From: an uncultured Gammaproteobacteria bacterium
GTDB lineage: Bacteria; Patescibacteriota; Microgenomatia; UBA10105
Direction: 5' to 3'
Assembly (NCBI GenBank): GCA_964387625.1
Contig: CAYLWN010000004.1
Coordinates: 1-42,225 of the forward strand
DNA length: 42,225 nucleotides
Part shown: piece by piece, positions 6,468-35,632 of the stretch
Layout of the letters: each line of letters starts with the position of its first letter
Numbering within the stretch: the stretch's first letter is position 1
Translations under genes and position numbers: made by a program
The notes under the pieces: generated by a model
What the model was told of the DNA's origin: nothing
Seen by the model: only the letters and a program-made list of their open reading frames with translations
The model's database searches: none

Positions 6468-7763
6468 TTAAAGCGTTGAAACAATTTTATATTCACCATC
6501 TTCCGAGATCACAAATGCTCTTTTGGGAAATTTCGGATAAGTTGATTCCCAAACAGATTGAGGCATACCGTCTGAGCCGACATATTTAGGAGGAGTAATG
6601 CCATAAGGATTATACAATCTCACAACTGCGGGGGATTTTGAATAATATAAACTTTCAAAAAAGACCAAAGGAGTTTGGGCATATATCAGGTCATTATTTT
6701 GGAGTAGAGGAGTAATTTGTTCAAAAGTAATTCTTATATTTACTTTGCGGTGAAAATCTGAAGCCAAGAAATTCAAAATAAAAGTGATAATCAATACTGA
6801 TGCAATAATGATATGTCTATATTTATTAGTTTTTAACGTAGCAAACCAAAGTGATACTAATAATATTTGTCCAACTGTAATAAAAATTAAATAGCGGTTG
6901 ACATAAATCGGTTTAAATAATGATATTCCCAAAACCAATGCCAGAGGTAAAAATACCCAACTTAAAATTAACCGAGAAACTGGTTTGTATTGGTTGGTTT
7001 TAAAAATAGAAATTGAAATAAGAATTAATCCTAAGGAAATTGCTGACATAATTATCCATAAGCCTCCAGGAGTACCTTCATATCCGGTATACAGATTACC
7101 CAATACAGAATTAAATAGATTGATATCCACTGGGAACATCCACATTGGTCCGCTTTGTTTGAATTGGGCAAGTAAAGTGGGTAACCAGGGTAAATAAAGC
7201 AAGCCCAATAAAATAAAATTTTTAACCATTGGTTTTACTTGTTTGGTAATATAAAAATAGGGGATTTGAGACACAGCAAATATTGCCATAAAAGGTTGGG
7301 TATACAAACCTAAAGTTGTAAATACAACATACCAAAACCAATTTTTAGTAAACAGAAAATAAACAGATGCGGTTGCAAAAAATGCAAATAGAGAATACAT
7401 ACGCAGTTCAAAAGCATAATAAATAAGCATTGGATTAAATGCTGCCAGCAAAAGTGTAATTAATGCCTGATTTTTATTGCGGAATATTTTTAGACTAAAT
7501 TTATAAATAAAAATTAATAAAAACAAAAAGAAAATTAATGATAATCCCCGTAAAATAATCTCGCTCCGGCCAAATAATTTCATCCAAAAATGCAAAATCA
7601 GGTAATAGAGTGGGGGATTAAAATCATGAGCAGTTCTGGCAATAACTTCTTTTACTCCATCTTGGGCAATCCAAACGGAAAACGCTTCATCACGCCATAA
7701 GCTTTGAGTCCAATAGAAGAGAGGTGTATGGCTTATCAGCCAATTAATCAAATTATTTAACAT
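6468..7763 (-). CDS. GT-C fold glycosyltransferase, family 39 / ArnT-like
   Basis: 431 aa, polytopic. N-terminal loop motif RDEAFSVWIAQ (the DE-type acidic motif of GT39/ArnT enzymes). Periplasmic-like C-terminal domain. Confidence 0.75.
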   Translation of the reverse strand: MLNNLINWLISHTPLFYWTQSLWRDEAFSVWIAQDGVKEVIARTAHDFNPPLYYLILHFWMKLFGRSEIILRGLSLIFFLFLLIFIYKFSLKIFRNKNQALITLLLAAFNPMLIYYAFELRMYSLFAFFATASVYFLFTKNWFWYVVFTTLGLYTQPFMAIFAVSQIPYFYITKQVKPMVKNFILLGLLYLPWLPTLLAQFKQSGPMWMFPVDINLFNSVLGNLYTGYEGTPGGLWIIMSAISLGLILISISIFKTNQYKPVSRLILSWVFLPLALVLGISLFKPIYVNRYLIFITVGQILLVSLWFATLKTNKYRHIIIASVLIITFILNFLASDFHRKVNIRITFEQITPLLQNNDLIYAQTPLVFFESLYYSKSPAVVRLYNPYGITPPKYVGSDGMPQSVWESTYPKFPKRAFVISEDGEYKIVSTL

Positions 7764-9364: not shown

Positions 9365-9416
9365 AAGAATTGGGGAAAGAATAGCTCAATTTTAGCACAA
9401 AAACAGCAAGATAATA

Positions 9417-9537
9417 AACTCTAAATCCTAAACTCTAAATTCTAAAAAAATTCAAAATTCAAAATAACAAAATACGAATAGGGAAGGTAATGTTGCGTTA
9501 ATCCTAATTTAGGATTTCGAATTTCGAATTTAGAATT
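9417..9537. repeat. Family E AT-rich inverted-repeat element (E1)
   Basis: aactctaaatcctaaactctaaattctaaa ... tttaggatttcgaatttcgaatttagaattt. Confidence 0.7.
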
Positions 9538-9549
9538 TTTAATGCGCAG

Positions 9550-12885: not shown

Positions 12886-12890
12886 AAAAT

Positions 12891-12976
12891 TATTCTTCGA
12901 ATCCGGCTTTGCCGGATGAGAAGTCATCAAAGTTTAGTTCTCATCCACAATTTCGTCGGGATTCGAACAATAATTT
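12891..12976 (+). repeat. Family A element, diverged intergenic copy (A1)
   Basis: tattcttcgaatccggctttgccggatgagaagtcatcaaagtttagttctcatccacaatttcgtcgggattcgaacaataattt. Colinear with A2/A3. The first hairpin keeps its pairing through compensatory changes. Confidence 0.75.
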
Positions 12977-13029: not shown

Positions 13030-13155
13030 ATTAAAGCTCGCAGATAAAATTTTTAGCAGATTCCAAAAACCGTTCGGGATGAAATGTTAAACTGTTAAAT
13101 AAAGTCATCGGCCCTCACTTGGTTTGGAACTGAAAAATTTTACCATGCTAGCATT
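13030..13155 (+). repeat. Family B long imperfect-palindrome element (B1)
   Basis: aaagctcgcagataaaattttt...ttccaaaaacc gttcgggatgaa...ttaaataaagtcatcggccctc...ggtttggaa...aaaaattttaccatgctagc. Colinear with B2. Confidence 0.65.
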
Positions 13156-14204: not shown

Positions 14205-14435
14205 ATGTATAATTTTAATAATTACGGACCTCTTACTAATTGGACGAGTTTGTTTTTTCTACCTTTGCTGGTTCCGGCTTTAATTTGGTCATTTGTCTGG
14301 AAAGGATTAGCTCTTTATCGGTCAGCCAGAAACGGACAAAAAGGTTGGTTTATACTTTTATTGGTTGTAAATACTGTAGGAATTTTGGAAATTATCTATC
14401 TGCTATTTTTCTCCAAAACAAAAGAGAAAAAATGA
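14205..14435 (+). CDS. Small two-TM membrane protein (resembles the DUF5652-type CPR proteins)
   Basis: 76 aa. WKGLALYRSARNGQKGWFILLLVVNTVGILEIIYLLFF. The family name is from memory only. Confidence 0.55.
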   Translation: MYNFNNYGPLTNWTSLFFLPLLVPALIWSFVWKGLALYRSARNGQKGWFILLLVVNTVGILEIIYLLFFSKTKEKK

Positions 14436-14441
14436 AACAAC

Positions 14442-14842
14442 CGTCATCCAGAACCCAGTCAGAACTGGGTGAAGGATCTCAATTATTTCACAAAATATCA
14501 TTATATAAATCTTTATATTTAGGATTTATTTTTTGTATAAGCTCTTTTTTATAAGTTCTGCTTTTTCCCTTTAGATATTTTTCTCTTTTAATTGCTTCTT
14601 CAATATTATTAAACACTTCAAAATAGACAAGTTTATGAAGATGATATTTTTTAGTAAATCCGTCAATAATATTATTTTTATGTTCCCAAACCCTTTTTAT
14701 AAGATTAGAAGTAACTCCGATATAAAGAACAGTATTATAAGAATTTGTGAATATATAAATAAAACCTCTTTTGATTTGCATATATTTATTATAAATATTG
14801 TGTGAGATTCTTCGTCCAGTTCTGACTGGACTCTGAATGACG
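14442..14842 (-). mobile_element. 401-bp cassette in which roughly 40-bp terminal inverted repeats enclose the GIY-YIG ORF (family C, putative autonomous copy)
   Basis: The left end is cgtcatccagaacccagtcagaactgggtgaaggatctca (14442-14481). The reverse complement of the right end (14803-14842) is cgtcattcagagtccagtcagaactggacgaagaatctca. Each arm also contains its own small hairpin. Confidence 0.8.
14488..14781 (-). CDS. Small stand-alone GIY-YIG nuclease (COG2827/URI-domain type)
   Basis: 97 aa. FIYIFTN (GIY), VLYIGVTSNL (YIG), R..EHK, EAIKREKYLKGKSR. Flanked by roughly 40-bp inverted repeats. Confidence 0.9.
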   Translation of the reverse strand: MQIKRGFIYIFTNSYNTVLYIGVTSNLIKRVWEHKNNIIDGFTKKYHLHKLVYFEVFNNIEEAIKREKYLKGKSRTYKKELIQKINPKYKDLYNDIL

Positions 14843-14906
14843 AGGAAAAATATTTAAGGCGACAGAATAATAATAGCATTAAATAAGTTATATAATTAAA
14901 AAAATT

Positions 14907-17900
14907 ATGAAATTAAATTCGGAACAAAAGAAAGCAGTAAGATTTGGGTTTGGACCACTTTTGATTATTGCCGGAGCAGGTACTGGTAAAACTACAGTTA
15001 TCACTGAAAGAATCAAGAATTTAATTATCAAACAAAATATTAAGCCCCAGGAAATTTTAGCCCTGACTTTTACTGAAAAAGCTGCCTTAGAAATGGAAAC
15101 CAGGGTAGATACAGCCATGCCTTATGGTTATACGCAAATGTGGATATCAACATTTCACAAATTTTGTGACCGGATTTTAAGAAATGAAGCAGTACATATA
15201 GGTTTAAACCCCGGATATAAATTATTTACAGATACTGATGCCACTATGTTATTTCGGAAAAATTTATTTAAATTAAATCTGGAATATTTCCGTCCCTTGG
15301 GTAATCCGGGGAAATTTATTGCTGGCATATTACAACATTTTTCAAGATTGCAAGATGAAGACATTAGTCCCACGCAATATCTTGCGTGGTGCAATGACAA
15401 ATTTCAAATGACCAATGACAAAAAAAATGAAGAAAATGTTTTAGAACAAAAAAAATATCAGGAATTGGCAAATGCATATAAATTTTATGCTGATTTAAAA
15501 ATTCAGGAAAATGTGATGGACTTTGGAGATTTAATTTCTAATGCGTTGCAATTATTCCGCACCAGAAAAAATATTTTAAAAAAATATCAAAGCCAGTTTA
15601 AATTTGTTTTAGTTGATGAGTTTCAAGATACAAATATCGCCCAGTATGAATTGATCAAACTTTTAGCACCACTAAATCCTCTCTCCGCCAGCCGGCGAAG
15701 CAGCCCTAACCTGACGGTTGTAGGAGACGATAATCAATCAATTTATAAATTCAGAGGCGCAGCTATTTCCAACATTTTGCATTTTCAAAAAGATTATAAA
15801 AACTGTCAACAAATAGTTTTACGGAAAAATTACCGTTCTTACCAATATATATTAGACAGCAGCCGTAAACTTATTAAGCACAATGATCCTGATACGTTAG
15901 AAGCCAAATTGGGGATCAGTAAAAATTTAACTGCTGTTAGAAAAACTGCCGATTTCCACAAAATTGAATTTATTCATGAAAATAGAGTGGAAGATGAAGC
16001 AGAAGTTGTTGCGAAAAAAATTAAAGAATTGAAAAGCAGTGTCATCCTGAACAGAGTGAAGGATCTGCCTATCGATACAATGCTTAAAGAAGATTCTTCG
16101 TCTTCGTCTCAGAATGACAGAAAGTGGAGTGATTTTGCGATTTTGGTCAGGGCCAATAATCATGCTGAATCTTTTATCCGTGCGTTGGGGAGAGCCTCTA
16201 TTCCTTATCAGTTTTTAGGACCGGCTAAATTATACAGACAACCAGAAGTAAAAGAACTGATTGCATATCTGCAAGTATTAAATGATTTTACAGACAACAG
16301 TGCTTTTTTCAAAGTTTTATCCATGCCATTTTTTGATATTTCGCAAAGAGATTTGATAGCTATCTCTAATTGGGCAAAAAGAAATCAACTGTCAATTTTT
16401 GAAGGCGTAGAAATCATTACCGGAGTGAGAATTGATGAAAAACTGCAATTGCCATTTATAAGCGATTTAACCCGGGAAAAAATTACCAAATTGGTAAAGA
16501 TGATATTAAACCACTTAAAACTTACCAACAAAGAAACAGCCGGACAAATATTATTTTATTTTTTGGAAAATTCCGGAATGTTAAAAAACATTTTGGAATT
16601 TAAAACTCCAATTGATGAACGGCAGGCGGGAAATATAACCAAATTTTTTAATAAACTAAAATCTTACGAAGCAGAGCATGAAGATGCATCAGTTATTGCA
16701 GTTTTAGATTGGCTAATGCTATCAATGGAATTGGGTGAGTCACCTCAAGCACAGGATATGGATTGGACTGACAACGATGCGGTAAATATCCTGACAACTC
16801 ACAGCAGTAAGGGTTTAGAATTTCCTGTAGTATTTTTAGTTAATTTGGTTTCGCAAAGGTTTCCTTCAACAGAAAGACATGAACAAATACCAATTCCCGA
16901 AGAATTGATAAAGGAAGTATTGCCAATTGGAGATTTTCATTTAGAAGAAGAGCGCAGACTGTTTTATGTAGGTATGACCAGGGCTAGGGATTTATTATAT
17001 TTAACAGCTGCAAATTATTATGGAGAGGGGAAACGTGAAAAAAAAATTTCTCCGTTTGTAAGTGAGGCATTAGACAAAAATTTTTCTTTTGAAAAAAATC
17101 CTAAAACAATAAATCAATTATCTTTGTTGGATTGGGGGAAATCCTTAAATCCTGAGCAAAGTCGAAGGACTCAGGATAAATTACATATTCATGGTGAGCG
17201 AAGCCGAACCATTAATTATTTATCATTTTCCCAAATTGAAGCATTTAAAACTTGCCCCTTACATTATAAATTAAGATATATTTTAAAAATTCCCACTCCC
17301 CCCTCCCCTGCTTTATCATTTGGAAGTTCTATGCATGCAACTCTCAAAAATATTTATGAAATCGTCAGACAAAAAATAAAAATAAATCACGAAACGCTTG
17401 AGCAATTATTGGAAAAAAATTGGATTAGAGAGGGATATGGAAATAAAAGTTATGAAAATTTAATGAAAGCCAGGGGTAAAAAATATTTATGGCAATATTT
17501 TAAAAAAGAATTTGATCCAAAAACAAAAGTTTTATTATTGGAGGAAAAATTTATGTTTCCGATTAGTTATTCTTCGAATTCGGTTTTACCGAATGAGAAG
17601 TTATTAAAGATTAGTTCTCGTTCTGCAAAGCAGGACTCGAACAATAAATTTCTCAAAATCGGTGGAAAAATTGATCGGGTAGATGATTTGGGAAAAGGAA
17701 TAATTGAAATCATAGATTATAAAACCGGTCGGGTACCATCGAAGCGGGAAGTGGATAAAGATTTACAGATGTCAATTTACGCTTTGGCAGCAACAGAAAT
17801 TCCTCATCTTCCTTTTGCAAAAAAACCTGAACAAATCAAATTATCTTTTTATTATTTTGATACCCAGGAAAAAGTTTCTACAGTTAGAACTCAGGATCAA

Positions 17901-18020
17901 TTAAATACAGAAAAAGAAAATTTAATCAAAATTGCTCAAGAGATTAGTGATTCAGACTATAAATGCTCAGGTCATAAATTTTGCGAAAATTGTGAATATG
18001 TATTGTGGTGTGGAATCTAA
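14907..18020 (+). CDS. UvrD/Rep-type SF1 helicase fused to a C-terminal PD-(D/E)XK nuclease with a Cas4/AddB-like 4-Cys cluster
   Basis: AGAGTGKTT (Walker A), VDEFQDTN, VVGDDNQSIYKFRGA, LTTHSSKGLEFPVVF, YVGMTRAR. C-terminal domain: first Cys in FKTCPLHYKL, GKIDRVD, IIDYKTG, then C-x5-C-x2-C in CSGHKFCENCEYVLWC. Contains several repeat-derived in-frame segments (see findings). Confidence 0.9.
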   Translation: MKLNSEQKKAVRFGFGPLLIIAGAGTGKTTVITERIKNLIIKQNIKPQEILALTFTEKAALEMETRVDTAMPYGYTQMWISTFHKFCDRILRNEAVHIGLNPGYKLFTDTDATMLFRKNLFKLNLEYFRPLGNPGKFIAGILQHFSRLQDEDISPTQYLAWCNDKFQMTNDKKNEENVLEQKKYQELANAYKFYADLKIQENVMDFGDLISNALQLFRTRKNILKKYQSQFKFVLVDEFQDTNIAQYELIKLLAPLNPLSASRRSSPNLTVVGDDNQSIYKFRGAAISNILHFQKDYKNCQQIVLRKNYRSYQYILDSSRKLIKHNDPDTLEAKLGISKNLTAVRKTADFHKIEFIHENRVEDEAEVVAKKIKELKSSVILNRVKDLPIDTMLKEDSSSSSQNDRKWSDFAILVRANNHAESFIRALGRASIPYQFLGPAKLYRQPEVKELIAYLQVLNDFTDNSAFFKVLSMPFFDISQRDLIAISNWAKRNQLSIFEGVEIITGVRIDEKLQLPFISDLTREKITKLVKMILNHLKLTNKETAGQILFYFLENSGMLKNILEFKTPIDERQAGNITKFFNKLKSYEAEHEDASVIAVLDWLMLSMELGESPQAQDMDWTDNDAVNILTTHSSKGLEFPVVFLVNLVSQRFPSTERHEQIPIPEELIKEVLPIGDFHLEEERRLFYVGMTRARDLLYLTAANYYGEGKREKKISPFVSEALDKNFSFEKNPKTINQLSLLDWGKSLNPEQSRRTQDKLHIHGERSRTINYLSFSQIEAFKTCPLHYKLRYILKIPTPPSPALSFGSSMHATLKNIYEIVRQKIKINHETLEQLLEKNWIREGYGNKSYENLMKARGKKYLWQYFKKEFDPKTKVLLLEEKFMFPISYSSNSVLPNEKLLKISSRSAKQDSNNKFLKIGGKIDRVDDLGKGIIEIIDYKTGRVPSKREVDKDLQMSIYALAATEIPHLPFAKKPEQIKLSFYYFDTQEKVSTVRTQDQLNTEKENLIKIAQEISDSDYKCSGHKFCENCEYVLWCGI
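16040..16119 (+). repeat. Family C ORF-less derivative (MITE-like) in-frame inside the helicase-nuclease gene
   Basis: gtcatcctgaac-aga-gtgaaggatct ... agattcttcgtc-ttcgt-ctcagaatgac. Both arms match the GIY-YIG cassette ends almost base for base apart from the inner hairpins. Translated as SVILNRVKDLPIDTMLKEDSSSSSQND. Confidence 0.8.
17159..17222 (+). repeat. Family C-like hairpin fragments within the helicase-to-nuclease linker coding region
   Basis: atcctgag-caaagtcgaagga-ctcaggat (perfect 8-bp inverted repeat) and atggt-gagcgaagccga-accat. A GC-rich patch in an AT-rich gene, translated as PEQSRRTQD...HGERSRT. Confidence 0.5.
17568..17651 (+). repeat. Family A element (A2), 84 bp, in-frame in the nuclease domain of the helicase-nuclease gene
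   Basis: Encodes YSSNSVLPNEKLLKISSRSAKQDSNNKF. Manual base-by-base comparison shows it is the exact reverse complement of 18492-18575. Confidence 0.9.
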
Positions 18021-18044: not shown

Positions 18045-18175
18045 TATAAAAGCTCGTATACAAAATTTTCTTGTTCCGCAACTCGATCGGGATGAAGCAT
18101 TACACTATTAAATAAAGTAATCGGCCCTCCTGACAATGCGAACTGCGAAAATTTCATATTACTCGCCTTTATAAA
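18045..18175 (+). repeat. Family B long imperfect-palindrome element (B2)
   Basis: aaagctcgtatacaaaattttc...gttccgcaac tcgatcgggatgaa...ttaaataaagtaatcggccctc...tgcgaac...gaaaatttcatattactcgcc. Confidence 0.65.
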
Positions 18176-18215: not shown

Positions 18216-19127
18216 TTATAAATTTATTTTGAATGATTGGGGGAAATAAATTTCTTTACCTCCAAAACCGGATTTGAATTTGGAAAATCCTAACCATTCT
18301 TTATTTAATTTTTCGTAACGTTCGTCATATATACCTTCAAAATCAAAATTTGTGCAATTCATTTTTTTTGCCTTTTTTAAACTTTCCCAAATCAGAAGAG
18401 TTGGTGCAAAATTTTGTTTGCCCGCGTTTGACGCGGCTGCCATCCAATAATAAGCAGTATTTTGCCAGATGAGAATTAAGACTCCGGCGATAAATTTATT
18501 GTTCGAGTCCTGCTTTGCAGAACGAGAACTAATCTTTAATAACTTCTCATTCGGTAAAACCGAATTCGAAGAATAATGAGCAATGTTTATCTTTGCCAAT
18601 AATATAAAAGCATTATTTGGTGCAAAAGTTTTCCATATTGGTTTAAGAGTTTGTGTAGTTAAAAATCCCAAAAATCCGGCTGATGAACCTTTAAGTTTAA
18701 TAAAATCTTCAATGTTATTAGAGTGAAATATTTCAACACCCAAATTTTGCGCCCGTCTAACTGCTTTTCTTTTAGCTCCTGAAAATTTATTAAATATTTC
18801 TGACTCATCAGGAAGTAAATCAATAAAAATTGTTTTTGTAGGTAAAAATGGAGACGTCAATGATTTTAAATTAGAGATTGCCACGTCGTCCTTTGGACTC
18901 CTCGCAATGACATTAGGCTCGACGGAAATTGAATGGCTATGATATTTTTGCATTAATAGTTTTAGTTTATTTAACTGAGGCAATTTATCAGATCTTTGCA
19001 ATTTCATAACTGCAGGTAATAATGGAAGTTTTTTAATAAAAATATTTACCCCATCAATATTTTCCACATTCCACCCAATTTTATTCATGAACTGAGCATA
19101 TGTTGAAGATTGATGTATGTCTTGCAT
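18216..19127 (-). CDS. FemAB/MurM-family aminoacyl-tRNA-dependent peptidoglycan peptidyltransferase (paralog 1)
   Basis: Colinear with paralog 2: VEPNV, KRKAVRRAQNLGVEI, YYWMAAASNAG, FDFEGI, GFSKFKSGFGG. The ORF is open to 19172. The ATG at 19127 (MQDIHQS) aligns better with paralog 2. Confidence 0.8.
   Translation of the reverse strand: MQDIHQSSTYAQFMNKIGWNVENIDGVNIFIKKLPLLPAVMKLQRSDKLPQLNKLKLLMQKYHSHSISVEPNVIARSPKDDVAISNLKSLTSPFLPTKTIFIDLLPDESEIFNKFSGAKRKAVRRAQNLGVEIFHSNNIEDFIKLKGSSAGFLGFLTTQTLKPIWKTFAPNNAFILLAKINIAHYSSNSVLPNEKLLKISSRSAKQDSNNKFIAGVLILIWQNTAYYWMAAASNAGKQNFAPTLLIWESLKKAKKMNCTNFDFEGIYDERYEKLNKEWLGFSKFKSGFGGKEIYFPQSFKINL
18492..18575 (-). repeat. Family A element (A3), 84 bp, in-frame in Fem paralog 1
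   Basis: Exact reverse complement of 17568-17651. Encodes the same 28 aa in the minus-strand gene. Confidence 0.9.
18874..18911 (-). repeat. Solo family C arm, in-frame in Fem paralog 1
   Basis: The coding strand reads gtcattgcgaggagtccaaaggacgacgtggcaatctc (GTCAT...AATCTC with an inner hairpin). Translated as VIARSPKDDVAIS. Confidence 0.55.
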
Positions 19128-19173
19128 ATTTTTTCTTTCTACTTTCTTGCTTGTTGGGAAGAAAGTAAGCAAA

Positions 19174-20479: not shown

Positions 20480-20776
20480 TTAAAAAGTGCTACATTTAAA
20501 ATTAATGACGCAGAAAAATAGTTGGTTGCCTGTTGATGAAAGATTGGTTCCGGATATTTTTTCATTTAAATATCCTAAAAGCAAGTGGGTAAGAGTATTG
20601 ATTGCGCTGGAAATGATTTTATCTGTTGGAGCAGTTGTCGGCACTTTGCTTTTAGCCTTGATGCCAAAAACCTCAACCACTCCCAAAGAAACCAATGCAG
20701 CTACTACGACAATAAAGACAACCCCTAAACCAATTTTATACCGATAGCATTTGAAAAATGCATCGAGTATATACAC
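20480..20776 (-). CDS. Possible small membrane protein (weak call)
   Basis: 98-aa ORF with one TM (IGLGVVFIVVVAALVSLGVV) in an otherwise 430-bp gap. The start codon lies inside repeat D1, and a mirror ORF exists on the + strand. Confidence 0.25.
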   Translation of the reverse strand: MYILDAFFKCYRYKIGLGVVFIVVVAALVSLGVVEVFGIKAKSKVPTTAPTDKIISSAINTLTHLLLGYLNEKISGTNLSSTGNQLFFCVINFKCSTF

Positions 20777-20835
20777 GATTATCTTATTAGAGCAAAATTT
20801 TTCAAAAATTTTGCAAATTCGGAGAAGATCGGTAT
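20737..20835 (-). repeat. Family D hairpin element (D1)
   Basis: Perfect 9-bp termini tataccgat...atcggtata. Central perfect palindrome gcaaaattttt-g-aaaaattttgc. Its reverse complement is colinear with D2. Confidence 0.75.
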
Positions 20836-20851
20836 AAAATAAATTATTATT

Positions 20852-22654
20852 TTAGCTTTCTAAATTTTTAATCAAATCCTCAGATATTTCCGTGATAAAG
20901 CGGGATACAAAATTACTGGTAGTATTGCCAAAATATAAACGGCGTCTGGCAAATGTTAAATATAACTTATCTTTTGCCCGGGTAATACCGACATAACAAA
21001 GTCTTCTCTCTTCTTCCAATTCGCTATTATCCAAGAGTGCGCGGCTATGCGGAAACAGTCCTTCTTCCATGCCGATCATAAAAACCACCGGAAATTCTAA
21101 ACCTTTGGCTGCATGCATGGTCATCAAAGTCACTGCATTTTTTTTACCGTTATTTATTTTTTTTTGATCTTTGGACATATATTCAGCTTCAACTAGAGAC
21201 ACATTTTCCAAAAAATCCACTAAGTTAGTAAATTCTTTAGCAACGCTTTTTAATTCTTTGATATTTTCTATCCGCATCAAATCCTCTTCGTTTTTAGGAT
21301 CAAAAAAGTCCATGTATTTAGTAGTTTTTAAAACATCATTTAAAATATCAAAAGTTGTAGCATGAACATCAATTTTTGGTTGTAATTCCCGAAAGTCCTG
21401 AGCTCTTTTTTTACCAATTTTTTCAATCCGTTTATTTGCCACACTATCTTTAGGACTGATTAATAATTTCAAATATGAAAGCACATCTTTGATTTCTTTG
21501 CGATCATAAAACCTGACTCCACCGATCAAAACATAGGGAATACCTGCATGCAAAAAAACCTCTTCAATGACTCTGGATTGCGCATTAGTGCGATAAAGCA
21601 CTGCAACATCAGAGAAAAGTAATCGATTAATTTCAATTTCTGATAAAATAAATTCAGCTTCATCATGTTCATTTTTTGCAGAGAACGTATTTATTTTTTC
21701 TCCCTCAATGTTTTTGGTCCAGAGTTTTAAAACCGGGTGAGTGATATTTCTAGAAATTACTTCATAGGCCGCCCCTAAAATATTTTGTGTAGAACGATAA
21801 TTTTGCTCCAAATAAAAAGTTTTACAATTTTTAAAATCTTTTTGAAAATTAACTACATTTTGAAAATTAGCTCCCCGCCAGGCGTAAATTGATTGACTGG
21901 CATCTCCGACTACACATAAGTGATGTGATTGTTTGGAAAGTAATTTAGTCAGCGTGTATTGGGCGGTATTGGTATCCTGATATTCGTCAACCAGTATATA
22001 TTGATATTTTTGGGCATATTGTTCCAATATAGATGGTGCTTCTTTGAATAAATTTACAGCCATCATCAGCAAATCGTCAAAGTCCAATGCCATATTTTCG
22101 CGCAATAATTTTTGGTAACTTAAGTAAATTTGTGCCACTGCTTCTTGAAATCTGCCCCTGCCAATATTTAAATATTCCAAAGGACTGATTAATTCATTTT
22201 TAGCTTGCGATATTGTTCCCAAAATCGCATTAGGAGAAAAATATTTTTGGGAAATATCCAAAGATGTCATTACTTCTTTGACAGCCTCTTTTTGATCGGC
22301 ACTGTCATAAATCAAAAAACTAGGAGGAATACCGATATATTTACCATCTTTGCGTAAAATTTTTGCACACAGGGAATGATAAGTTCCGGCAAATGGCAGT
22401 TCGTAGTTCGAAGTTCGTAGTTCATAGTTATTAGTTAATAATTTCTTTATGCGTTCTCGCATTTCACCGGCTGCTTTGTTGGTAAACGTTACCATCAAAA
22501 TTTGATCAGGTGAAATATGTTTTTCTTTGATCAAGTAAACTACTTTATAAGTTAAGACACGGGTTTTACCAGAACCCGCACCAGCCAAAATTAATTCCGG
22601 TCCGGTAATATAGGCGACTGCTTTTTGTTGAGCTGGATTTAAATCTTGCAACAT
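20852..22654 (-). CDS. ATP-dependent DNA helicase PcrA/UvrD family (short, 600 aa)
   Basis: AGAGSGKTRV, VDEYQDTNTAQY, VVGDASQSIYAWRGA, NYRST, TMHAAKGLEFPVVF, YVGITRAK. Confidence 0.9.
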   Translation of the reverse strand: MLQDLNPAQQKAVAYITGPELILAGAGSGKTRVLTYKVVYLIKEKHISPDQILMVTFTNKAAGEMRERIKKLLTNNYELRTSNYELPFAGTYHSLCAKILRKDGKYIGIPPSFLIYDSADQKEAVKEVMTSLDISQKYFSPNAILGTISQAKNELISPLEYLNIGRGRFQEAVAQIYLSYQKLLRENMALDFDDLLMMAVNLFKEAPSILEQYAQKYQYILVDEYQDTNTAQYTLTKLLSKQSHHLCVVGDASQSIYAWRGANFQNVVNFQKDFKNCKTFYLEQNYRSTQNILGAAYEVISRNITHPVLKLWTKNIEGEKINTFSAKNEHDEAEFILSEIEINRLLFSDVAVLYRTNAQSRVIEEVFLHAGIPYVLIGGVRFYDRKEIKDVLSYLKLLISPKDSVANKRIEKIGKKRAQDFRELQPKIDVHATTFDILNDVLKTTKYMDFFDPKNEEDLMRIENIKELKSVAKEFTNLVDFLENVSLVEAEYMSKDQKKINNGKKNAVTLMTMHAAKGLEFPVVFMIGMEEGLFPHSRALLDNSELEEERRLCYVGITRAKDKLYLTFARRRLYFGNTTSNFVSRFITEISEDLIKNLES

Positions 22655-25377: not shown

Positions 25378-25498
25378 GTCATGCTGGAATCCCGATCGCA
25401 ATCGTGAACGATAGCATCTTCTTATTTAAAATAGATTCTATCGCTTCTCCCGATTTTCTTTGAATAATTAATGATTATCGGGATCGCTCCAGAATGAC
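25378..25498. repeat. Family C MITE-like hairpin element (intergenic)
   Basis: gtcatgctggaatcccgatcgcaatcgtgaacgatagcatcttc ... gattctatcgcttctcccgatt ... cgggatcgctccagaatgac. Nested inverted repeats over about 121 bp. Confidence 0.8.
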
Positions 25499-26920: not shown

Positions 26921-26994
26921 AAAATTCGAAATTCGAAATTCGAAATTCGAAATACGAATGACGAATCAAATCCAAATAATTAAATTTCTAAATG
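26921..26994. repeat. Family E-like element with a tandem heptamer (aaattcg)x4 plus degenerate units (E3)
   Basis: aaaattcgaaattcgaaattcgaaattcgaaatacgaatgacgaatc ... aaatttctaaatg. Confidence 0.65.
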
Positions 26995-27003
26995 TTTTTA
27001 TTT

Positions 27004-27107
27004 GTCATGCTGGAACGAAGTGATAGCATCTTCTTAAAATACACAACAAGATTCTATCTCCCAATTTTAATTATATTAAATTAAAGTTTGTCGGGATCCA
27101 GAATGAT
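27004..27107. repeat. Family C MITE-like hairpin element (intergenic)
   Basis: gtcatgctggaacgaagtgatagcatcttc ... gattctatctccc ... gtcgggatccagaatgat. Confidence 0.7.
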
Positions 27108-30364: not shown

Positions 30365-30384
30365 AAAAATTTACCCCTTTATTA

Positions 30385-30487
30385 TATACCGATCTTCTTT
30401 GAAATTACATGATTTTTTAGAAAAAAATCATGCTCTAATAAGATGATCGAATATATACACGATGTATTTTTTAATACAATCGGTATA
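30385..30487 (+). repeat. Family D hairpin element (D2)
   Basis: tataccgatcttct...catgatttttt-ag-aaaaaaatcatg...gctctaataagatgatcg...atcggtata. Confidence 0.75.
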
Positions 30488-34053: not shown

Positions 34054-34140
34054 GTCATTCTGGAGCGAAACAAAGTGGAGCGATAGAATCTTTTTATAGA
34101 GCCTATCGTCTCCGCCTGATGGCGGATCCTCCAGGATGAC
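34054..34140. repeat. Family C MITE-like hairpin element (intergenic, upstream of the hrcA promoter)
   Basis: gtcattctggagcgaaacaaagtggagcgatagaatct ... agcctatcgtctccgcctgatggcggatcctccaggatgac. Confidence 0.8.
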
Positions 34141-35038: not shown

Positions 35039-35515
35039 ATGAAAAAAATTGATGAATCAGTTTTAAAAGAAAAAGATAAAGCAATAGAAGATTTAAAAAA
35101 ACAATTAAGTGAAGCTCAAGAAAATTGGAAAAGGGCTTTGGCTGATTATCAGAATTTAGAAAAAAGACACAGTGAAGACAGAGTTAATTTTATTAAATTT
35201 TCGATAAAAAATTTTGTCTTAGAATTACTTCCAGTTGTGGATGCTTTAGAAAAAACACATGAGTATCTTCAGGACAAAGGATTGGAATTGTCGTTGAAAC
35301 AATTACATAAAATATTAAAAGCCCAAAACGTAGAAAAAATAAATGTGTTGGGTAAAGATTTTGATATCCAGATGATGGAAGCGGTATCTGTAGCAGATGG
35401 AAAAGAAGATAACAAGGTTATTACTGAATTAAGTCCGGGATATACGCTGCACGGTAGCATTTTAAGACCGGCGAAAGTGATAGTGAGTAAAAACGTACAA
35501 AACTCTAAATCCTAA
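35039..35515 (+). CDS. grpE: Nucleotide exchange factor GrpE
   Basis: Coiled-coil N-terminus. RALADYQNLEKR, LLPVVDALE, GYTLHGSILRPAKV. The last codons and the stop lie in repeat E2. Confidence 0.9.
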   Translation: MKKIDESVLKEKDKAIEDLKKQLSEAQENWKRALADYQNLEKRHSEDRVNFIKFSIKNFVLELLPVVDALEKTHEYLQDKGLELSLKQLHKILKAQNVEKINVLGKDFDIQMMEAVSVADGKEDNKVITELSPGYTLHGSILRPAKVIVSKNVQNSKS

Positions 35516-35604
35516 ACCCTAAATTCTAAAAAAATATTTTAAAAAATATTTGAATTTGAGATTTTGAATTTATTTAGAGTTTAGAATTTAGAAATTAGAA
35601 TTTA
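35499..35604. repeat. Family E AT-rich inverted-repeat element (E2), between grpE and dnaK
   Basis: aaactctaaatcctaaaccctaaattctaaa ... tttagagtttagaatttagaaattagaattt. The first 25 nt are nearly identical to the E1 left arm. It supplies the grpE stop codon. Confidence 0.75.
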
Positions 35605-35632
35605 TATAAAATTTAATTAAGGAGATAAAACT

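Follow-up and report, generated by a model that had tools for sequence, protein, structure and literature searches.

A GIY-YIG nuclease gene between inverted hairpin repeats in a Patescibacteria genome: a probable Ssn/SRM locus with a variant repeat

Introduction

In the 42,225-nucleotide stretch of DNA analyzed here (contig CAYLWN010000004.1, GC content about 33%; the whole stretch is referred to as the window), a gene for a 97-amino acid GIY-YIG nuclease is enclosed by two inverted hairpin repeats, forming a unit of 401 bp. This unit is very likely (with a probability of about 0.82) an Ssn/SRM locus, consisting of an Ssn-family nuclease and two cognate SRM arms, which are CGTC-tagged REPs. 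The system itself has already been described in 2025, and the locus in the window adds a variant repeat and a new host.

SsnA from Neisseria meningitidis is a 94-amino acid single-domain GIY-YIG protein (CDD cd10448), which was shown to bind the NTS repeat CGTCATTCCCGCGMAVGCGGGAATCYRG only as single-stranded DNA (Chenal et al. 2025, Nat Commun, PMC11893778). The cut site was located a few nucleotides 5' of the repeat; duplex DNA, RNA and the complementary strand remained untouched, and the RNA form of the repeat was not bound (PMC11893778). Mutagenesis revealed that three bases 5' of the palindrome control cutting and that the C just 3' of it controls binding, and cutting was abolished in the SsnA variants Y6A, Y17A and E64A (PMC11893778). 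For an Ssn protein of W. pipientis, cleavage of the cognate repeat was demonstrated, and in Neisseria, Ssn reduces transformation by NTS-bearing DNA (PMC11893778). Family members are defined by a BLASTP match to N. meningitidis SsnA (CAX49033.1) with E<1e-10 and a coverage of 75% or more, and by cd10448 as the best CDD match (PMC11893778). At least one nearby SRM was found for 71% of the Ssn homologues, and SRMs on both sides for 42% (PMC11893778). The arrangement NTS-ssnA-NTS was likened by the authors to an insertion sequence, to IS200/IS605 and to REP/RAYT; mobility was not demonstrated (PMC11893778).

The CGTC-tagged REPs include Neisseria dRS3 and Rickettsia RPE-4 and RPE-6 (Di Nocera et al. 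2013, PMC3733652). They occur mainly as inverted dimers, often in frame within DNA-repair genes, for example those of UvrD-type helicases, where they contribute 20-30 codons (PMC3733652). The families CGTC-1 to -4 have a continuous stem of 8-9 bp and a loop of 4-5 nt, and the CGTC REPs were said to have "no dedicated transposase" (PMC3733652).

The unit in the window had been noticed in a preliminary description, made by reading the DNA and its open reading frames. There, the role of these small GIY-YIG proteins was called poorly defined, which is outdated, since the family was named and characterized in 2025 (PMC11893778). The idea given in the same place, of a nuclease acting on hairpins, has been confirmed by experiment in the case of homologues, namely the SsnA proteins of Neisseria and Wolbachia (PMC11893778).

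The nuclease and its flanking arms

The gene, ssn, is located on the minus strand at positions 14488-14781 including the stop codon, and was identified as an open reading frame with a match to the Pfam family PF01541. The 97-amino acid GIY-YIG reading frame within a 401-bp unit was recovered with the coordinates and sequences given for it before. The GIY-YIG domain covers residues 6-78 (E=1.3e-13), and other domains were not found. By the list of open reading frames, ssn is single-copy in the window, and it is the sole gene of the unit. The AlphaFold2 model of the protein (predicted local distance difference test, pLDDT, 92.7) has the GIY-YIG fold in one compact domain, for which the nearest solved structures are UPF0213 protein BH0048, Slx1 and the N-terminal domain of UvrC. 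A sequence search of the PDB with the 97-amino acid protein gave no match, the similarity to solved structures being below detection. All matches to NCBIfam models were far under the cutoff, the group I intron endonuclease model reaching 21 bits compared to a cutoff of 56. Among the 28 homologues compared, Y9, Y20 and E67 are invariant. With spacings of 11 and 47 residues, identical to those between Y6, Y17 and E64 of Neisseria SsnA by the published residue numbers, they would correspond to these catalytic residues.

Downstream of ssn, and in the orientation opposite to the gene, the left arm is located at 14442-14481 on the plus strand (CGTCATCCAGAACCCAGTCAGAACTGGGTGAAGGATCTCA), with a predicted single-stranded DNA fold of -8.2 kcal/mol (z=-2.66). 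The right arm lies upstream of ssn in the orientation of the gene, at 14803-14842 on the minus strand (reverse complement, CGTCATTCAGAGTCCAGTCAGAACTGGACGAAGAATCTCA), with a fold of -7.3 kcal/mol (z=-2.87). In inverted orientation, the two 40-nt arms are identical at 34 of 40 positions. All six mismatches form three compensatory pairs (positions 7/34, 12/29 and 13/28), in which one Watson-Crick pair is swapped for another, so that each arm keeps its own hairpin. The near-perfect inverted terminal repeats with inner hairpins of their own, as described earlier, were thereby found again in both the identity and the folds. One long hairpin of the whole element, in which the left arm would pair with the right arm, was rejected, because the compensatory changes keep the pairing within the arms and create mismatches between them.

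In the fold common to both arms, an outer stem of 4 bp leads into a 3x3 internal loop (AGA/GAA), which is followed by an inner stem of 7 bp that closes on a CAGA loop. Along the arm, the order is CGTC tag, stem beginning with AT, internal loop, inner hairpin and ATCT tail. Both arms point outward and read CGTC-AT..stem..AT-C-T, the palindrome being preceded on its 5' side by an unpaired GTC and followed immediately on its 3' side by a C. A search of the window against Rfam, at the gathering threshold and at E<=1, gave no match at the arms. A hammerhead-like or other ribozyme, considered for strings resembling CUGA and GAAA, was rejected because the core does not fit, and the Rfam result is in agreement with this.

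Association of the gene with the repeats in other genomes

For the 97-amino acid protein, more than 5000 relatives were identified. The best matches other than the protein itself are 59-72% identical and originate from hosts as diverse as Nitratiruptor, Desulfurobacterium, Microgenomates and WWE3. The comparison set contained one genome per species and 80 loci, in which 72 genes had enough flanking sequence to be evaluated. Represented among the loci are Melainabacteria, Campylobacterota, Alphaproteobacteria including Wolbachia, Gammaproteobacteria, Omnitrophota, Ignavibacteria, Bacteroidota, Cyanobacteria, Clostridia, several Patescibacteria and one archaeon. The last of these is a metagenome-assembled genome of the Methanomethylophilaceae (L016), in which the homologue is 67% identical to the protein of the window and has arms nearby; this is either a cross-domain transfer or a binning artefact.

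Arms were detected by a simple test composed of GTCAT, a 5-bp stem and ATC. An arm was present at a distance of at most 150 bp in 64 of the 72 genes. The upstream arm had the orientation of the gene in 48/72 and the downstream arm the opposite orientation in 54/72, and both together, the canonical layout of arm, gene and inverted arm, were found in 41/72. Per kb, the arm density was 3.45 at distances of up to 300 bp from the gene and 0.18 at distances above 1 kb, a 19-fold difference; in shuffled loci, it was 0.046. These counts support the view that gene and hairpin repeats form a pair; the co-occurrence of the nuclease clade with such termini, which the preliminary description had proposed to follow across genomes, was thus identified in most of the genes evaluated.

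A comparison of the nucleases with their flanking repeats, also proposed there, gave a similar picture. The stem of 5 nt is identical in the upstream and downstream arms of 29 out of 42 genes (9.3 expected). Similarity is higher between proteins of one stem type than between proteins of different types, with 0 of 1000 permutations reaching the observed difference, a correlation in which shared ancestry is a partial confounder. In 110 gene-proximal arms from other genomes, found with a detector that itself demands GTCAT and ATC and leaves positions -1 and +1 free, C or T was present at -1 in 100 arms, and +1 was T in 86. Across phyla, the conservation of tag and tail is strand-specific. The main repeat of the clade can be written as GTCAT(T/C)(C/G)(C/T)GAG...CGAAG...ATC.

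Assignment to the Ssn/SRM system

The connection to the published system is provided by homologues of intermediate identity. A Thiomicrorhabdus homologue with 57% identity to the protein of the window (E=8e-39) is flanked by CGTCATTCCCGCGTAGGCGGGAATCT, a sequence very close to the NTS consensus of Neisseria. For a Wolbachia homologue, the identity is 52% (E=7e-38) and the flanks are GTCATCCCAGT..ACTGGGATCT. By analogy to the characterized enzymes, the folded repeats are very probably substrates of the nuclease.

Several points weigh against this assignment. The published SRM search pattern, HGTCWYN(0-2)YYVSBRHN(0-5)WNVSBRGN(0-2)RNCYNB, required at a distance of at most 500 bp on either side of the gene, gave, as transcribed here, 0 matches in the window, and it matched the flanks of 7 of the 67 closest homologues (L012-L091). 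This pattern demands a continuous GC-rich stem and is a search heuristic, not a functional definition. Since it fails on the window and on most of the closest homologues, the arms of the window are regarded as a divergent subtype. Membership in the Ssn family is suggested by indirect sequence links, and a search for proteins related to the Thiomicrorhabdus homologue with NTS flanks returned no Neisseria entry. The ancestry shared by proteins of one stem type, mentioned above, also reduces the weight of the correlation between repeat and protein. The enzymatic activity of this subtype, including the Patescibacteria protein, would be that of the characterized homologues. Finally, the arms of the gene-less copies described below are weak as single-stranded folds under standard DNA parameters, so that some of them may no longer be substrates.

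Gene-less copies of the repeat in the window

Apart from the unit with ssn, the window contains four gene-less SRM dimers, one solo arm and one truncated arm. The dimer closest to the unit is located at 16041-16118, with arms at 16041-16066 (plus) and 16091-16118 (minus); its 78 bp, or 26 codons, lie in frame inside the helicase-nuclease gene at 14907-18020. The second dimer, 25378-25498, is located between two minus-strand genes (arms 25378-25419, plus, and 25433-25498, minus). In the third, 27004-27107, with arms at 27004-27031 (plus) and 27049-27107 (minus), the tag of the right arm has degenerated to ATCAT. The fourth, 34054-34140, lies between divergent genes and has one mismatch in the outer stem of the right arm (arms 34054-34091, plus, and 34099-34140, minus). 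The solo arm of the ATTGC/GCAAT stem type is found on the minus strand at 18875-18911, inside a FemAB-like reading frame (18216-19172), and has a predicted fold of -5.8 kcal/mol. Elements lacking a reading frame had been listed before at 16040, 25378, 27004 and 34054, with a solo arm at 18874; all of these were recovered, with starts at 16041 and 18875 for the first and the last, and the beginning of a further arm, GTCATCCTGAT, which had been missed, is present on the minus strand at the window edge (1-11).

The dimers share the outward layout, and the arms follow a common plan, composed of GTC, a 5-bp stem starting with AT, unpaired bases rich in G and A, a variable inner part, the other half of the stem, and CT. 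The arms beside ssn carry the tag CGTC and most of the others TGTC, and every stem starts with AT. The stems are broken by an internal loop, and whole arms have lengths of about 26 to 66 nt. With the pattern from the preliminary description, 15 matches were obtained in the window compared to 4.3 expected, a number reached in 0 of 100 shuffles, and a stricter arm detector identified 9 arms compared to 1.56 in shuffles.

The outer parts of the 16041 dimer align with those of the gene-bearing unit left to left and right to right (score 12.5, compared to 3.0-3.5 when crossed), which makes this dimer a sibling of the unit. The 25378 and 27004 dimers are siblings of each other. The earlier statement that the nearest derivative matches both arms almost base for base holds for the outer parts and is overstated for the whole, because the inner 7-bp hairpin of the gene-bearing unit is missing from the 16041 element. 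Since sibling dimers keep their left/right asymmetry, the unit of copying appears, from these alignments, to be the dimer and not the single arm. Direct repeats indicative of a target-site duplication were found at the borders of 0 of 5 elements, in agreement with what had been noted at first inspection.

The 26 amino acids encoded by 16041-16118 are missing from most helicase orthologues. In other Gottesmanbacteria, the same surface loop of the helicase contains in-frame SRM dimers of differing sequence (L092, 5114-5218; L095, 5186-5284). In most other lineages, the loop has no dimer. Two origins are conceivable, namely an insertion long ago with later turnover, or recurrent insertion into a site that tolerates it.

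Genomic context of the unit

The ssn unit is chromosomal and intergenic, with a DUF5652 gene on one side and the gene for a 1037-amino acid UvrD/PD-(D/E)XK helicase-nuclease on the other. The best named relatives of the helicase belong to Candidatus Gottesmanbacteria and to the Patescibacteria group. A protein identical to the ssn product of the window is present on groundwater metagenome contigs. In the interval between the RmuC and helicase genes, the ssn unit was found only in this species, and related Gottesmanbacteria have other genes or none at this position.

Signs of recent movement were sought in several ways. Among the matches listed for the protein of the window, the same layout was present in 10 of 10 places, and strain-level presence or absence of the unit was not found among these. 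Two identical homologues, P0022 and P0068, each have one fixed genomic context, with 24 contigs read for each. In loci with two or three gene copies, the paralogues are only 65-71% identical at the DNA level and are therefore not recent copies. For the neighbour of the 25378 and 27004 elements, only one contig was recovered, and for that of the 34054 element no record was found.

Proposed mechanism

On the basis of the characterized homologues, the following sequence of events is proposed. DNA bearing an arm would become single-stranded, for example at the replication fork, during DNA uptake or in repair, and the arm would fold into its hairpin. Ssn would then bind this hairpin, recognizing also the unpaired GTC tag on the 5' side of the stem and the C that immediately follows the stem. 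It would cut the strand bearing the arm, at a distance of a few nucleotides on the 5' side of the tag, with no action on duplex DNA, RNA or the complementary strand. With both arms facing outward, cuts are predicted immediately next to the unit, in the top strand left of 14442 and in the bottom strand right of 14842. The gene-less dimers would be further substrates of the same kind. In this organism, the system might limit incoming single-stranded DNA, drive the spread of the repeats, or both.

The layout resembles REPIN/RAYT systems, with one stable framed gene and scattered repeat dimers, some of them in frame in DNA-repair genes. A more far-reaching proposal, for which we see rather less than an even chance and which is given as tentative, is that Ssn and the dimers form a REPIN/RAYT-like replicator operating with a hydrolytic GIY-YIG single-stranded DNA nuclease in place of an HUH transposase. 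Here, outward cuts on opposite strands, together with host repair, would copy whole dimers to new sites, including recurrent in-frame insertions into particular surface loops of DNA-repair helicases.

Alternative explanations

In the preliminary description, the unit was interpreted as an autonomous transposon and the gene-less pairs as miniature inverted-repeat transposable elements (MITEs), with the GIY-YIG protein excising and inserting the elements. For this interpretation speak the layout, which is like that of an insertion sequence with arms facing outward, an analogy also raised by the Ssn authors (PMC11893778), and the left/right asymmetry of the unit that is retained in the dimers and points to the dimer as the copied unit. 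Further, the 78-bp dimer is an insertion compared to most helicase orthologues, and the ssn unit is missing from the syntenic RmuC-helicase interval of related Gottesmanbacteria. The pairing of gene and repeats, which is part of this interpretation, stands (64/72). However, the classical mechanism is unproven and unlikely: target-site duplications are absent, a single fixed gene context was found for the three proteins checked, the paralogues are old (65-71% DNA identity), and the arms are self-folding oriented hairpins and not plain terminal inverted repeats. In addition, the predicted cuts would be on opposite strands and confined to single-stranded DNA, so that a duplex element would not be released. 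To our knowledge, GIY-YIG enzymes are hydrolytic nucleases without strand-transfer chemistry, and as hydrolysis leaves no covalent intermediate, rejoining would need host repair. A gene for an HUH/Y1 transposase and a transposase domain are absent from the unit by reading frames and domain search, and transposition is unreported for any Ssn (PMC11893778).

According to another explanation, a free-standing homing endonuclease gene invaded the spacer of an existing dimer and spreads by cutting gene-less dimers, which are then filled by repair copying. GIY-YIG homing endonucleases are well known, the gene sits exactly at the position of the dimer spacer, and proteins with 50-70% identity in distant phyla and in one archaeon suggest horizontal transfer. 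Nevertheless, this explanation is quite improbable, since the 97-amino acid single-domain protein has no separate DNA-binding domain, unlike I-TevI, the gene-less dimers of the same genome are still gene-less with the gene being single-copy in the window, and the characterized homologues never cut duplex DNA (PMC11893778). Even less credible, and hardly to be expected on the present data, is that the hairpins are RNA elements, such as terminators or mRNA stabilizers, with no functional link to the gene beside them. Of the four gene-less pairs, three are indeed intergenic and near gene ends, and many REPs were argued to be transcribed by Di Nocera et al. (PMC3733652). Against this, the association of gene and repeat is strong and orientation-specific, tag and tail are conserved strand-specifically across phyla, and the RNA form of the repeat is not bound by SsnA (PMC11893778). 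The window-wide Rfam search was also blank at the gene-flanking arms, and a promoter and terminator scan of the unit (14300-15000) gave nothing above chance. The assignment to an Ssn/SRM locus is therefore preferred over these explanations.

Other repeats and inserts in the window

Further repeats were identified in the window which do not belong to the SRM arms. A second family of hairpin dimers without the GTCAT tag is present at 12889-12975, 17567-17654 and 18489-18576 (for example TTCTTCGAATYCGGYTTTRCCGRATGAGAAGT). The latter two copies have 88 nt, are 99% identical and have inverted relative orientation; they are located in frame in the C-terminal part of the helicase and in the FemAB-like reading frame, respectively. 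The helicase segment with the second-family copy is missing in most orthologues, and at this position L092 has a true SRM dimer (6762-6874). The FemAB-like reading frame (18216-19172, minus strand, TTG start) contains the solo SRM arm and a second-family dimer in its N-terminal and middle parts. Its true start and the coding status of the inserts are uncertain, because only residues 217-306 match FemAB.

The only sub-threshold matches in the Rfam search were to RF03531, the C. difficile 'sRNA included into helicase gene', at 16919-17014 (plus) and 20943-21037 (minus). With 48 and 59.5 bits compared to a gathering threshold of 65.2, they are located inside the coding regions of two UvrD-like helicases and most likely reflect conserved coding sequence, not an RNA gene.

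A direct repeat of 56 nt with 80% identity, starting with TTCC..CGnTCGGGATGAA, was found at 13061-13116, intergenic just upstream of the RmuC gene, and at 18074-18129, just past the helicase gene, and is without a match in Rfam. The distant intergenic regions 20751-20843 and 30378-30474 share an inverted repeat of about 90 nt with a complementarity of 80-85%. In addition, short tandem arrays of AT-rich units of 7-9 nt (AAACTCTAAATCCT..., ATTTCGAA...) are present in intergenic regions at 9414-9543, 26921-26958 and 35500-35605 in both orientations.

Significance

With the Ssn family and its connection to hairpin repeats in the literature since 2025, no new field is opened by the locus in the window. 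It would extend the host range, since an Ssn/SRM system, apparently intact, would be present in an ultra-small Patescibacteria genome. In the clade nearest to the protein of the window, which is distributed over many phyla, the repeats mostly have a 5-bp stem starting with AT, followed by GAG...CGAAG. As the published pattern, in the transcribed form, misses this subtype, the published values of 71% and 42% repeat-flanked homologues may be underestimates. The range of Ssn specificities usable as tools for single-stranded DNA may also exceed what has been reported.

The asymmetry of the sibling dimers and the helicase-loop dimers in several lineages have a bearing on whether Ssn spreads its repeats. 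A GIY-YIG-based replicator, if true, would be a mobilization mechanism so far undescribed; the 2025 paper contains the analogy without mobility (PMC11893778).

Comparison to known systems

The protein of the window resembles SsnA in being a single GIY-YIG domain with the same Tyr/Tyr/Glu spacing, the two having 94-97 amino acids and thus less than 150. With the NTS and SRM repeats, the arms of the window share the CGTCAT tag, the palindrome starting with AT and the ATC(T) tail, and the locus shares the order of repeat, gene and inverted repeat, together with extra copies in the genome. Differences are found in the host, which here belongs to the Patescibacteria (Candidatus Gottesmanbacteria), and in the arms, which are AT-rich, with an outer stem of 4-5 bp, an internal loop rich in G and A and a variable inner hairpin, up to a length of about 65 nt.

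Compared to the CGTC REPs, the unpaired CGTC or TGTC tag, the stems beginning with AT, the short unpaired tail and the prevalence of inverted dimers (four, compared to one solo arm) are shared, as is the in-frame dimer of 26 codons in a UvrD-like helicase gene. The stems in the window are interrupted, whereas the published ones are continuous over 8-9 bp. In the 2013 paper, it was concluded that these repeats have no enzyme of their own; the Ssn work and, on the assignment given here, the locus in the window supply one.

In REPIN/RAYT and IS200/IS605 systems, as in the window, a single stable gene is framed by inverted hairpin repeats and dimers are dispersed, and the enzyme recognizes folded single-stranded hairpins and cuts beside them, a property shared with Ssn. 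There, however, the enzyme is an HUH/Y1 transposase with a covalent intermediate and cuts one strand; here, it is a hydrolytic GIY-YIG nuclease, for which cuts on opposite strands are predicted at the two ends. The protein of the window has its catalytic fold in common with I-TevI and with Slx1 and UPF0213, and Slx1 likewise is structure-selective. In contrast to these proteins, it lacks both a separate DNA-binding domain and a partner protein, and its gene is not placed in an intron or intein.

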